This document shows positions 12,868-25,110 of a stretch of 64,000 nt of DNA, piece by piece. The notes beneath the pieces were generated by a model. The model was not told the DNA's origin. It saw only the letters and a list, made by a program, of their open reading frames with translations, and did no database searches. The position numbers and the translations under genes were made by a program. Location of the stretch: the NCBI RefSeq assembly GCF_040807025.1, contig NC_090970.1:709359-773358 (forward strand), in the 5' to 3' direction. Origin of the DNA: Struthio camelus (taxonomy: Eukaryota). Position 1 is the stretch's first letter. Every line of letters starts with the position of its first letter.

Positions 12868-12950
12868 TTGTCACGCAGGACGCCGCCGTCGACGCAGGCG
12901 CCCAGCAGGGTGGCGCTGCCCCCGTCTGCCCCGTCAAGGCCCAAAAGCCC
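12868..12950 (-). CDS. SLC12A6: SLC12A6-like exon (TM9 region): GLLGLDGADGGSATLLGACVDGGVLRD(K)
   Basis: The 3' part matches KCC VVLFGACIEGVVLRDK. Donor AA|GTGAGT, with the split K codon completed by the next exon. The 5' boundary is uncertain: acceptor ctatttcag at 12951-12953 was chosen, and an alternative cag sits 23 nt inside. Confidence 0.6.
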
Positions 12951-12954
12951 CTGA

Positions 12955-13700
12955 AATAGCCCCAAAACGGCCCCCCGAAACCGGCACCTCCCTCCGGGAC
13001 ACCCAAACCGCCCCGAAACACCCCAAAACGGGGACCCAAAAAGCCCCGAATCGCCCCAAAATGGACACCCCCCCTGAACACCCAAACCGCCCGGAAACCA
13101 CCCAAAACGTCCCAAAATCCCCCCAAATGAACCCAAAATGGGACTCCCCCCCCCCAAAGCTGGATGCCCAGAACTCCTCAAAACGCCCCAAAACAAGTAC
13201 CCAAAACCGCCAGATATAGCCCCAAAATTTGAAGCCCCCCCCCCCGGAGGAAACCCAAAATGAGGATCCCCAAAACCTCACAAAATCACCCCAAAAAAGG
13301 ATCCCCCACCCCAAACCCCCGGAATAGCCCCAAAAAGGGATGCCAAAACCCCCCCCAAAATGCCCCAAAACTCAGCCCCTCCCAAGGACCCCAAAACAGC
13401 CAAAAACGTCCCCAAAAACCAGGCCCGGCCCCAAAATCCCATGAAACAGCCCCAAAAAGGGGATCGAGAAAAAAACCCCGAAACGCCTCAAAAACGGCTC
13501 CCAGCCCCCAAAACGGGACCACTCCAACCCCCCCCCAAACGCCCCCAAACGCTGCCTTTTTTGGGTCTGATTCTCCCGTTTTTGGCTCAAACCTCCCATT
13601 TCGGGGCCCGAATGCCCATTTTTGGGCATTTTTTGCCCATTTTTAGGGCCACCCCCCCGTTTTTGGGGCTCCTTCCCCCCCCCCCATTTCCAAGGTTTCT
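12955..13700. repeat. CCCCAAAA-type A/C-rich low-complexity tract, intronic
   Basis: Runs of CCCAAAAC / CCCCAAAA with degenerate periodicity. Confidence 0.6.
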
Positions 13701-13789
13701 GCCCCGTTTCCGGGCTGCCGCCGCTCCCGTTTCGGGGCGAATCGGGCCGGTTTTGGGGGCCGGATGCAGATGAGGGCGGCGACGACGAC

Positions 13790-13866
13790 GGCGAGGAAGG
13801 TGCCGGCCGGGACGGAGCGGGGGGCGTCGGCCAGGGGGGCCGGGCTGCCCACCCCCGCCAGCAGGC
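13790..13866 (-). CDS. SLC12A6: SLC12A6-like exon (TM8 region): (G)LLAGVGSPAPLADAPRSVPAGTFLA[VVVAALICI]
   Basis: Matches KCC [35 protein letters not shown], with 17/17 spacing between the G and T anchors. Acceptor cag|gc fits the phase-1 end of the upstream exon. The 3' end is unresolved. There is no canonical GT after the hydrophobic ...AALICI stretch, which would extend the exon to about 13763. The only in-phase donor is a weak GCC|GTCGTC at 13790. Confidence 0.5.
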
Positions 13867-13899
13867 CTGCCGGACGCCGGGGCCCGCTCGGACGCCGGG

Positions 13900-22075: not shown

Positions 22076-22142
22076 CCACCCCGGGCCCGGGCCGGCGCGT
22101 GCGGGAACACGGGCCGACGCGCGGCGCGGGGGCGGCGCTCAC

Positions 22143-22273
22143 CAGCAGGGTCTCGGCGGCGCCCAGGGCGGCCATGGCGGCGGCGAAGGCGGTGCCCAGG
22201 TAGCAGCAGAGTCCGGCGGCGCCGCCCACCTCGGGGCCCAGCGCCCGCGAGAGCAGGGCCAGCGCGCCTCCCC
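22143..22273 (-). CDS. SLC12A6: SLC12A6-like exon (TM2): (G)[43 protein letters not shown]
   Basis: Matches KCC [43 protein letters not shown]. Donor CTG|GTGAGC. Acceptor gcgcag|gg, in phase 1. 131 nt. Confidence 0.85.
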
Positions 22274-23020
22274 CTGCGCCCGGACGCCTGGGTCCGCACC
22301 CGGACGCCTGGGTCCCTCCCGGACGCCTGGGCCCCTCCTCTCCCGGACACCCGGGTCCCTCCCAGACGCCTGGGCCCCTCCTCTCCCGGACACACGGGTC
22401 CCTCCCAGACGCCTGGGCCCCTCCCGGACGCCTGGGCCCCTCCTCTCCCGGACACCCGGGTCCCTCCCAGACGCCTGGGCCCTCCCGGACGCCTGGGCCC
22501 CTCCCCTCCTCCCAGACAGCCCGGTCCCCCCCGGATGCCTGGGCCCCTCATCTCCCAGACACCTGGGCCCCTGCCCGGGACACCTGGGCCCCTCCTCTCC
22601 CAGACACACGGGTCCCTCCCGGACGCCTGGGCCCCACCCAGACATCCGGGCCCCTCCTCTCCTCCCAGACAGCCCGGTCCCCCCCGGACGCCTGGGCCCC
22701 TCATCTCCCAGACACCTGGGCCCCTGCCCGGGACACCTGGGCCCCTCCCGTCCCAGACAGTCCGGTCCCCCCCGGACGCCTGGGCCCCTCCTCTCCCAGA
22801 CACCCACGTCCCTCCCAGACACCTGGGCCCCTCCCGGACACCTGGGCCCTTCACCTGGCTGCCTGGGCCCCTTCCCCACAGGCCTAGATTCCCACCCAGC
22901 TTCCTGGACTCCTCCCGGACGCCTGGGCCCCTTCCAGAGACACCCGGGTCCCTTCCGCGGACGCCTGGGCCCCTCACCCAGCTGCCTGGGCTCCTCCCGG
23001 ACGCCTGGGTCCTCCGCGGG
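22270..23020. repeat. 18-bp satellite family (GGACGCCTGGGYCC orientation), intronic
   Basis: Same family. Confidence 0.85.
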
Positions 23021-23071
23021 GAGGCCGCCGTTGCTGACGATGGCGCTGAGCGACACGGCCGTGAGCAGCAT
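22978..23071 (-). CDS. SLC12A6: SLC12A6-like exon (TM1b): MLLTAVSLSAIVSNGGLPA[EDPGVREEPRQL](G)
   Basis: Matches KCC [19 protein letters not shown]. Acceptor cccgttctcctcccgcag at 23072 is strong. There is no GT directly after ...GGLPA. The first strong, phase-compatible donor is CTG G|GTGAGG at 22977. Using it adds 12 residues derived from the 18-bp satellite (EDPGVREEPRQL) to the TM1-TM2 loop. The alternative is a non-canonical donor near 23014. Confidence 0.55.
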
Positions 23072-23229
23072 CTGCGGGAGGAGAACGGGAGGGGGGGGGG
23101 AGGGCCGGACGCCTGGGTCCCCCAGCGCACGCGCGGCACCCCCCCGACACGCCAACGACACGCGACTCCGCCGCCCCCCCCGCCGCAGCCCCACACACCA
23201 CCGCGCGCCCCCTCCCCACGCCAGCCGCC

Positions 23230-25110
23230 AGCCCGCCCCATATCTGGGTCCCTCCCCGGACGCCTGGGCCCCTTCGCTCCCGAACACCTGGGCCCCCGAA
23301 CCCCCTCACCCGGACGCCTGGGCCCCCCGATCAGACACCTGGGTCCCTTTCCCGGACGCCTGGGCCCCTTCCCTCCCGGACACCTGGGCCCCCTGCTGCC
23401 CTGGGCACCTGAACCCCCTCACCCAGACGCCTGGGCCCCCCGATCGGACACCTGGGCCCCTTCCCTTTCCCGGACACCTGGGCCCCTTCCCTCCCGGACG
23501 CCTGGGCCCTTCTGTCCCCCAACGCCTGAACCCCCTCACCCGGACGCCTGGGCCCCTTCCCGGACGCCTGGGCCCCTTCTGTCCCCCAACGCCTGAACCC
23601 CCTCACCCGGACGCCTGGGCCCCTTCCCCGGACGCCTGGGCCCCCGGATCAGATACCCGAGTCCCTTTCCCGGACGCCTGGGCCCCTCCCCCAGATGCCT
23701 GGACCCCCCAATCAGATACCTGAACCCCCTCACCCGGACACCTGGGCCCCCTGCCGCCCCGGACACCTGGGCCCCCCCCCCCCAAACACACACGAGGGTC
23801 CCTCTCCCGGACGCCGGGGCCCCTCCCCGTGCCGCCCGGACGCCGGGGCCCCCCGCTCTCACCCTCGGCGGCAGGACTCCCGGCCGCTCGTTACGCCCCG
23901 CGCGCGCTAACGACGGGCCGGGCTTACGCGGGCTCCCCCCCCCCCCCCGCCGGACCCATGATTCGGGCGTGACCTGAGCATGACCTTAGCGTGTCACCCC
24001 ACCCCGCGGCGTGACCTTAGCGTGTGGCCCCGCCCCGCGCCCCGCCCCGCTCACGCAGGCGCAGCACAGCAGCCCGGCGCCCAGGGCCTGCAGCAGCCCG
24101 GCCGTGCCGACCACCCAGGCCAGGCGGAGGAAGAGGACGAGGCCGAAGACGTCCTGCAGGCAGGGCAGGAAGACGCCCCGCAGCGGGCCCCGGCCCCCGG
24201 CCTGCCGCCCGGACGCCGGGGTCCGCACCCGCACGGCCTGGGCCCCCCTCTGCCTCCTCCCTCCCGCGCGCGCGCCGCGAGCCCGGACGCCTGGGCCCCT
24301 TCTCGGGCGCTCGGGTCCCTCTCCCGGACGCCTGGGCCCTTTCTCCAAAGGACTGGGTCTCTTCTCCCCGGACGCCTGGGCCCCTCCTGTCTCGTACATC
24401 GGGGCCCCATCCCCGGACACCTGGGCCCCTTCCCCCCCAGACACCTGGACCTCCTCACCCGGACGCCTGGGCCCCTTCACTCCCGGACGCCTGGGCCCCC
24501 CGATCAGACACCTGAGTCCCTTTCCCGGACACCTGGGCCCCTTCCCTCCCGGACGCCTGGGTCCCTTCACTCCCGGACTTCTGGGCCCCTTCCCCCCCCG
24601 GACGCCTGGGCCACTTCCCCCCCCCAGACGCCTGGGCCCCCCAAATAGACACCTGAGTCCCTTTCCCGGACGCCTGGGCCCCTCACCCGGACACCTGGGC
24701 CCCTTCCCTCCCGGACACCTGGGCCCCCTGCCGCCCTGGGCACCTGGATCCACACCCGGACGCCTGGGCCCCTTCGCTCCCGGATGCCTGGGAGCTTCTG
24801 TCCCCCAACGCCTGAACCCCCTCACCCGGACGCCTGGGCCCCTTCCCTCCCGGACGCCTGGGCCCCCCGATCAGATACCTGAGTCCCTTTCCCGGACGCC
24901 TGGGCCCCTCACCCGGACGCCTGGGCCCCCCGATCAGATACCTGAGTCCCTTTCCCGGACGCCTGGGCCCCTCCCCCGGACGCCTGGGCCCCTCCCCCGG
25001 ACGCCTGGGCCCCCCAATCAGATACCTGAACCCCCTCACCCGGACGCCTGGGCCCCTTCCCTCCCGGACACCTGAGTCCCCCTCCCCCACAAACACGAGG
25101 GTCCCTCCCC
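23230..25110. repeat. 18-bp satellite family with degenerate variants, spanning two introns of the SLC12A6-like gene
   Basis: Same family. It is interrupted by the exons at 24055-24201. Confidence 0.8.
24055..24201 (-). CDS. SLC12A6: SLC12A6-like exon (TM1a): [49 protein letters not shown]
   Basis: Matches KCC [46 protein letters not shown]. Donor TGC|GTGAGC. The 5' acceptor cag at 24202-24204 is phase-compatible but has a poor pyrimidine tract. The linker to the previous exon is 11 aa shorter than in KCC1/KCC3, so this boundary is uncertain. Confidence 0.6.

Follow-up and report, generated by a model that had tools for sequence, protein, structure and literature searches.

Analysis of a 64,000-nucleotide (nt) stretch of ostrich (Struthio camelus) DNA (contig NC_090970.1, positions 709,359–773,358 of the forward strand; hereafter the window) revealed a GC-rich SLC12A6 gene, which encodes the K-Cl transporter KCC3. 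Our reading, to which we give a probability of roughly 75%, is that this gene is intact and that its odd-looking structure reflects the loss of a splice donor that exonised satellite DNA, a conserved U12-type intron in transmembrane helix 7 (TM7), and a bird-wide shortening of the N-terminal linker. An earlier inspection of the bare letters (the sequence-only reading) had listed these places as anomalies and proposed lineage-specific change, non-canonical splicing or assembly errors as causes; the first appears right for the insertion, found in ostrich and kiwi, and for the linker, short in four bird models, and the second for the TM7 junction, a predicted GC-AG U12-type intron. The gene occupies the following part of the window:

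1–25664, minus strand: ostrich SLC12A6 (KCC3) gene, recognised by exon mapping, a 722-residue identity, the match to KCC3 structure, and Pfam

The ATG lies at 25664 and the first 19 coding exons follow on the minus strand; the gene extends past the start of the window, which thus holds its 5′ two-thirds, with the C-terminal exons outside. The frame is open across the 19 exons, and all introns in the window have consensus GT-AG ends except at the two flagged junctions, after TM2 and within TM7. The spliced model is identical to residues 1–722 of the NCBI Struthio camelus SLC12A6-like protein (P0002; 722/722 residues), the RefSeq protein having already been built on the same junctions. The spliced product contains the Pfam domains AA_permease (PF00324, 1.7e-30) and SLC12 C-terminal (PF03522, 3.3e-16), and a phmmer search of the PDB ranked human KCC3 first (847 bits), followed by KCC1 (790), KCC2 (745) and KCC4 (731). 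The top database matches of the ostrich protein were all SLC12A6, and the exon 1 peptide MAAVRFVVTPAKM corresponds to the KCC3a-type start MASVRFMVTPTKI. The window has 65–80% G+C and consists mostly of tandem repeats, and G+C at third codon positions (GC3) of SLC12A6 reaches 98%. No conventional bird KCC3 was present among 120 listed homologues; this makes the GC-rich gene most likely the SLC12A6 orthologue of birds rather than an additional copy.

Human KCC1 and KCC3 probe sequences served for exon location only, and conclusions were rechecked with database proteins. Comparison loci came from kiwi, an owl (Strix uralensis), Zosterops, a skink (Lerista edwardsae) and a knifefish; the KCC3 protein set comprised 26 non-bird proteins, from rays to mammals, and four bird models (ostrich, kiwi, stork and sea-eagle).

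Proposed donor shift and satellite sequence after TM2

The exons and splice sites around the end of TM2 are as follows:

24055–24201, minus strand: TM1/TM2a exon (...LLCCAC), canonical GT-AG sites
23017–23071, minus strand: ancestral TM2b exon, 55 nt (MLLTAVSLSAIVSNGGLP + g), of equal length in owl, Zosterops and skink
23015–23016, minus strand: position of the ancestral donor GT (CG in ostrich, CC in kiwi; GT in Zosterops, owl and skink)
22978–23016, minus strand: predicted exon extension of 39 nt, two satellite units (AEDPGVREEPRQL + first base of the junction Gly)
22972–22977, minus strand: predicted replacement donor GTGAGG (CTGG/GTGAGG), phase 1, same donor in kiwi
22143–22273, minus strand: exon of the intracellular loop 1 (ICL1) helix and TM3 ((G)...AAETLL), acceptor gcgcag/GG

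In skink, owl and Zosterops, the 55-nt exon is followed by a phase-1 intron immediately 3′ of a Pro codon (skink, aat ggg gtg gtt cct g/gtgagt; owl, ...gac ccc g/gtgagc, with an identical end in Zosterops). At the same site ostrich reads ccc g/CG gag gac and kiwi atg g/CC gag gac. As the sequence-only reading had noted, no canonical donor follows NGGLPA, which ends at 23015 and continues into gaggac, and the next in-phase consensus donor, CTGG/GTGAGG (GT at 22977), lies within satellite; reading through to it encodes EDPGVREEPRQL. The bases between are covered by Tandem Repeats Finder arrays (22279–23009 and 22822–23013), and the 20-mer at 22993–23012 has 114 near-copies (≤2 mismatches) in the window against 0.01 expected.

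Comparison with the orthologues revealed a net insertion of 39 nt (23016–22978), in frame and free of stop codons, that encodes 13 residues (AEDPGVREEPRQL) rather than the 12 first proposed. It is located not in the TM1–TM2 loop, as originally placed, but in the TM2–TM3 cytoplasmic loop, after TM2 ends and ahead of the short ICL1/IL23 helix that precedes TM3. Of the 30 aligned KCC3 proteins, 28 have gaps throughout the insertion columns, and the TM2–ICL1 stretch of the 26 non-bird proteins is nearly unchanged, with zero length variation. The inserted residues are hydrophilic, acidic and proline-rich, a composition that would suit an exposed loop. Structural papers describe the ICL1 helix as shifting with TM8 on closure of the cytoplasmic gate and as touching the N-terminal inhibitory peptide.

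The extension continues in both ostrich and kiwi as ...cca ggc gtc cgg gag gag ccc agg ca(g/t) c(t/c)g g/gtgagggg. The two species differ at 4 of its 39 positions, one being the former donor +2, where the change falls on the third base of what is now an Ala codon and is synonymous. The split between ostrich and kiwi is the deepest among living palaeognaths, and because both lack the ancestral GT, its loss probably preceded their divergence. The 39-nt insertion, judged from these comparisons, is evidently a real lineage-specific sequence common to ostrich and kiwi and not an assembly slip. The NCBI protein models of both species use GTGAGG and include the extension; together with splice-site logic, these models point to the presence of the 39 nt in the mature mRNA, and the major spliceosome most likely now uses CTGG/GTGAGG. 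In the proposed sequence of events, the phase-1 donor after ...NGxxP-g would have lost its GT before the ostrich–kiwi split, and splicing would have shifted to the next consensus donor, which lies 39 nt further 3′, within the two leading units of the satellite in the intron. Since the extension is a multiple of three and stop-free, the mRNA would keep its frame, and the protein would gain AEDPGVREEPRQL, 13 hydrophilic residues, between TM2 and the ICL1 helix at the cytoplasmic face.

We consider it unlikely that exon 6 (the TM2b exon) is instead spliced elsewhere, either at a GC in CCAG/GCGTCC (~23003), adding four residues, or at a satellite donor further downstream, adding more. MAFFT did align the neognath g/gtgagc with the ostrich g/gcgtcc, likewise in phase 1, and additional in-phase sites of the g/gtgaag type occur downstream in the open satellite frame. 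However, GC donors normally require a near-perfect match at the remaining U1 positions, and GCGTCC fits the U1 consensus at −2, −1 and +1 only. The 55-nt skink, owl and Zosterops exons, with their NGxxP-g end, put the ancestral donor at 23016 and not at 23003, and GTGAGG is the first strong site and the one adopted in the NCBI ostrich and kiwi models. The MAFFT placement of the ancestral donor at the ostrich CCAG/GC was rejected, as all three of these exons measure 55 nt.

A predicted U12-type intron within TM7

The TM7 junction comprises the following elements:

13768–13866, minus strand: TM6b–7 loop and first half of TM7 (LLAGVGSPAPLADAPRSVPAGTFLAVVVAALI + T of the Tyr codon), where the spliced model equals P0002
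12926–13767, minus strand: predicted U12-type intron, 842 nt, GC-AG, phase 1 in the Tyr codon, with CCCCAAAA/TTTTGGGG repeats in two opposite orientations
13760–13767, minus strand: putative U12-type 5′ splice site GCATCCGG (consensus RTATCCTT; fish and skink, GTATCCTT)
12933–12939, minus strand: putative U12 branch-site motif CCTTGAC, branch A at 12934, 9 nt from the intron end
12868–12925, minus strand: second half of TM7 ((Y)GGSATLLGACVDGGVLRDK), acceptor ggggcag/AC, donor GACAA/gtgagt
12926–12950, minus strand: GGGCTTTTGGGCCTTGACGGGGCAG, the 3′ end of the predicted U12 intron including the branch site, earlier taken as the start of a Gly/Asp-rich exon

The hydrophobic stretch TFLAVVVAALICI (13801–13763) has no GT 3′ of it, as first reported; its assignment to TM8 did not stand, since it lies between the TM6b–7 loop and the TM7–8 linker and forms the first half of TM7. 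The kiwi protein threads exactly onto the kiwi genome only via a GC-AG intron at this point (TCATCT/gcatccggcc...tctccttgacgggggcag/ACGGAG). The ostrich ends are TCATCT/gcatccggcc...gccttgacggggcag/ACGGGG, and those of the owl, a neognath, are tgggct/GCATCCGCCC (gcatccgccc)...tTTCCTTGACagcacag/AC, with the 3′ end also given as tttccttgacagcacag/ac, so that the intron starts with T/GCATCCG in all three birds. In the same codon and phase, introns with GT ends are present in the knifefish (ctcgtat/GTATCCTTCC (gtatccttcc)...ttcctgag...acag/at) and in the skink (tttgtgt/GTATCCTTCC (gtatccttcc)...cTCCTTGAC...ccag/at). The ostrich 5′ site /GCATCCGG matches /RTATCCTT at five of eight positions, with the ATCC core kept, C at +2 and GG at +7/+8. 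Candidate branch sites are gCCTTGAC in ostrich, TCCTTGAC in kiwi and TTCCTTGAC in owl, with the branch A at −9/−10, and a G-rich stretch without a polypyrimidine tract lies 3′ of them. The GCATCC motif alone is not significant, as RYATCC has 114 matches in the window; the argument is therefore based on the orthologous position and the paired branch site.

Joining T/AC gives the Tyr that is conserved in all KCC3 (human FVYLSN, ostrich LIYGGS), and the predicted ostrich splice junction reads ...CTCATCT/ACGGGGGC. The mean Kyte-Doolittle hydropathy of TM7 is 1.77 with this junction, close to 1.79 in human. On these comparisons, the TM7 junction, which the sequence-only reading had listed as an unresolved TM8/TM9 junction, is to all appearances a GC-AG U12-type intron at a position conserved from fish to birds, whose splicing is predicted to restore the conserved Tyr and an intact TM7 helix; we infer its dependence on U11/U12. 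The TM7 coding sequence would thus be interrupted within a Tyr codon by a minor-spliceosome intron whose position is the same from fish through lizard to birds. GTATCC would have become GCATCC in all three of the birds compared, with the CCTTGAC branch site and the CAG acceptor retained, and intron removal would join ...LI-T/AC-GGS..., regenerating the Tyr and the hydrophobic helix.

Published work is consistent with this assignment. SLC12A4, SLC12A5 and SLC12A6 are listed as minor-intron genes, and the minor intron of mouse Slc12a4, with branch site TTCCTTAAC (branch consensus TTCCTTRAY), is a standard model substrate. GC is an accepted U12 donor dinucleotide, macaque and cow SLC12A4 carry GG-AG variants, and a human GC-AG U12 intron is functional, being spliced less well than GT-AG.

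The sequence-only reading had considered a weak donor, GCC/GTCGTC, joined to an acceptor at 12951/12950, so that GLLGLDGADG would take the place of the helix's second half. In its favour, the two sites share phase 0 and a short pyrimidine run accompanies the 12950 acceptor. Nevertheless, this junction would lose the conserved Tyr, place two Asp in the helix and lower its mean hydropathy to 1.03 (vs 1.77–1.79), and it ignores a splice pair that kiwi and owl have kept, in a position orthologous to that of the GTATCCTT U12 introns of skink and fish; we regard it as barely credible. It is true that only weak in-frame sites of the GCC/GTCGTC type occur upstream, but they appear not to be used and the helix is retained. 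Likewise, the Gly/Asp-rich exon proposed at 12868–12950 shrinks to 12925–12868, GLLGLDGAD being intronic and holding the branch site. Read-through of the TM7 interruption was also rejected, as the ostrich frame contains a stop and the kiwi frame a TAA three codons in.

The junctions after TM2 and in TM7 also bear on whether the anomalies are small assembly errors in low-complexity sequence that conceal a true gene with canonical junctions. A region of 65–80% GC composed mainly of satellite is error-prone in principle; yet the independent kiwi assembly shares the extension, the replacement donor and the GCATCC...CCTTGAC...CAG intron ends, identical base for base at the critical positions, the owl also has the GC-AG U12 intron, and the NCBI ostrich protein equals the window model over 722 residues. 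We consider such errors very improbable.

A second U12-type intron lies in the Tyr codon of DENY/MEFLEVL, outside the window in ostrich. It begins with /GTATCC in skink, fish and owl and with /GCATCC in kiwi. The kiwi intron (locus L002, 34716–37339) is GC-AG, with /GCATCCCCCC and a perfect TTCCTTAAC branch site; the owl intron (locus L005, 8375–8937) is GT-AG, as in skink and fish. Since kiwi has GC at both U12 introns, a T-to-C change at +2 would have taken place in each.

Within the TM7 intron (12926–13767), the CCCCAAAA-type repeat runs in one orientation for the first ~200 nt and is reversed in the remainder, and the kiwi layout is alike. Many imperfect inverted repeats are present; some of them pair sequence ≤~25 nt from the 5′ end with sequence ≤~60 nt from the 3′ end at 87–93% complementarity over 14–15 nt. 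The skink protein model P0069 (L. edwardsae, locus L003, 16152–16430) reads past the U12 5′ site to a nearby GT, adding CILPD in TM7; this addition is an annotation error caused by the TM7 U12 intron.

Linker, residue replacements and constraint

25166–25255, minus strand: N-terminal inhibitory-peptide exon with shortened tail (EELATRPKVSALLRRVAAYSTLPPPAAEGQ), canonical cag/GAG...CAG/gtgaga

The linker from RPKV to the residue before TM1 counts 33 residues in both palaeognaths, ostrich and kiwi, 35 in the models of stork and sea-eagle, and 44–47 in the 26 non-bird KCC3; the ostrich linker is 11–14 residues shorter, where a deficit of about 11 against KCC1 or KCC3 had first been noticed. The two linker exons have consensus splice sites with boundaries conserved in kiwi, which argues that the deletion is real. 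The short linker is apparently a genuine feature common to all four bird models and not a modelling artefact. The absent part is the conserved QGAKEHEEAE... segment, which corresponds to helix N2 in the autoinhibitory N-terminal peptide known from KCC2 and KCC4, so that the deletion would remove the N2-helix part of that peptide.

Over 851 codons, the ostrich–kiwi ratio of nonsynonymous to synonymous substitution (dN/dS) was 0.29 (NG86) or 0.09 (YN00), a GC3 of 98% making dS hard to estimate, and it was lowest in the C-terminal domain (0.12). Both figures (~0.1–0.3) indicate probable purifying selection on a gene that appears constrained yet fast-evolving. Bird KCC3 keeps 57–69% of the 582 columns that are invariant in non-bird KCC3, with 31–43% replaced. 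The replaced residues include positions in the TM1 (24201–24055), TM6 (16535–16410) and TM8 (10934–10760) exons. The residues reported to coordinate K+ and Cl− in KCC1 structures are Asn-Ile and Gly-Val-Ile in TM1, Tyr in TM3, Pro/Thr in TM6 and Tyr in TM10. Of these, the TM3 and TM10 Tyr are confirmed as ion-coordinating in the structural literature. Ostrich retains the Tyr of TM3 and TM10 and the Pro of TM6, and the changes are N to D and I to V in TM1 and T to P in TM6. In neognath KCC3 the TM3 Tyr is a Phe, at the putative K+ site. Accelerated protein evolution has been published for GC-rich, hard-to-sequence avian regions, and the many replacements fit this pattern.

Several points weigh against an intact gene spliced as we propose. 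Palaeognath KCC3 carries the TM1 N-to-D and TM6 T-to-P changes, has lost SNRSGDL including the gate Arg, and has Q to R in TM8; the TM8 Gln pairs with that gate Arg, and the R440/Q521 pair is S and R in palaeognaths. Given such replacements at invariant positions, normal K-Cl transport by the predicted protein may not be assured. The U12 5′ site is degenerate (GCATCCGG vs RTATCCTT), and the branch A lies merely 9–10 nt from the 3′ end in birds, at the short end of the usual range. Use of the GTGAGG donor is predicted from sequence logic and Gnomon models. An AlphaFold2 model of P0002, built from a 30-sequence alignment, was unusable (mean predicted local distance difference test score 44), and its secondary-structure string alone was used, weakly.

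The same replacements could be taken to mean that the gene is a decaying pseudogene, with the lost donor and the TM7 junction as disabling lesions: a substantial share of the invariant columns is replaced, ion-site and gate residues are among those changed, and the ancestral donor is destroyed. Against this, the frame is open in the 19 ostrich exons here and in all 24 kiwi exons, the other splice sites are consensus, dN/dS is low in the comparison above, the length and frame of the extension have been kept since before the ostrich–kiwi divergence, and the neognath orthologues are intact too. Decay of the gene is thus improbable in our estimate.

Implications, genomic setting and comparison with known systems

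For annotation, the analysis suggests that two features which look alarming in the model of a GC-rich avian gene reflect genuine biology rather than mistakes. A suspicious junction can be compared with a second palaeognath and an outgroup, and ATCC...CCTTRAC sought, before the junction is called broken; the skink mis-modelling of the TM7 intron shows the cost of overlooking such introns. The birds examined appear to tolerate GC at the 5′ end of this intron. The extension after TM2 would represent a dated case of satellite DNA turned protein-coding by a donor shift, in a loop with an important function in a transporter relevant to disease, and the most interesting element is this satellite-derived, length-conserved insertion of 13 residues in an otherwise invariant gating loop. 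The loop, which moves with TM8 to close the intracellular gate, is length-invariant in the 26 non-bird KCC3 proteins. Because the satellite insertion in the gating loop, the bird-wide loss of N2 and the R440/Q521 replacement all lie on the same protein face, palaeognath KCC3 might possess a re-engineered gating and autoinhibition module partly made of satellite DNA, an idea that we offer as speculative and rather doubtful. RefSeq already includes the gene model, the mechanisms are all of familiar types, and current understanding is not overturned.

The exons at 2463–2271 (ELRRRMA...TFVG) and 774–578 (LVRAAAA...LRQHK), both on the minus strand, are intact, canonical C-terminal-domain exons; they are absent from the NCBI ostrich protein P0002 and present in the kiwi model. 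Upstream of the gene, an array of 10.8 kb (window 28292–39139) is made up of a 20/41-bp satellite (CCCGGACGCCTGGGCCCCTC), which also occupies many KCC3 introns (e.g., 13870–16376, 22279–23013, 23244–23775 and 24282–25158); it is reversed in the introns at ~2500–6000, and the same family is found in kiwi introns. The introns at 6100–10100 and 19280–22040 contain 62–73-bp tandem repeats of a GTCAACACGGGTGGACACGGG-like unit, and the intron at 6–10 kb has the lowest G+C of the window (54%). KCC3 spans 8.5 kb in its entirety in the owl (L005) and 34 kb in kiwi, and more than 25 kb in ostrich for two-thirds of the gene; essentially all of this gap between owl and ostrich or kiwi is intronic satellite.

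Upstream of SLC12A6, the listing of open reading frames was uninformative in satellite DNA, and a Pfam scan of ten of them yielded one RING exon only. This exon, on the minus strand from 63078 to ~62782, reads MAVCEDLLLCNYRKCRAKLAGYAWVTACSHIFCD...FWTYQ followed by gtgagc and matches zf-RING_5 at 5e-7. It looks like coding exon 1 of CCNB1IP1 (HEI10), in which case it would belong to a neighbouring gene upstream of KCC3 on the same strand.

Compared with vertebrate SLC12A6/KCC3 genes in general, the ostrich gene has the same exon–intron architecture, including both U12 introns, the same KCC3a-type exon 1 and the same AA_permease and SLC12 domains, whereas its protein is just 47–50% identical to other tetrapod KCC3 and differs in the 13-residue TM2–ICL1 insertion, the shorter N-terminal linker and several changed ion-site and gate residues. 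The predicted TM7 intron resembles known KCC U12 introns, such as that of mouse Slc12a4, in its ATCC core, in the TCCTTRAC-type branch site near the 3′ end and in the lack of a polypyrimidine tract, and it has the same position and phase as in fish and skink KCC3; unlike them, the ostrich intron opens with GC rather than GT and carries GG where they have TT at +7/+8, the distance from the branch A to the 3′ end is only 9–10 nt in birds, and the ostrich intron has grown to 842 nt of repeats. The change proposed after TM2 follows the known route of exonisation through donor loss and a downstream cryptic donor, in that the ancestral GT is gone and the next consensus GT is in phase with no stop between; it differs in that the recruited DNA is a tandem satellite, whereas other cases draw on a transposon or on unique intron sequence, and in being fixed, and constant in length, in two birds from either side of the deepest palaeognath split. 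Like other GC-rich “hidden” or “missing” avian genes, bird KCC3 combines extreme GC, a satellite-rich setting, many changed conserved residues and fragmentary short-read models (e.g., a Zosterops contig with 39% N); in contrast to them, its full structure is recoverable and it is annotated by NCBI in both ostrich and kiwi.

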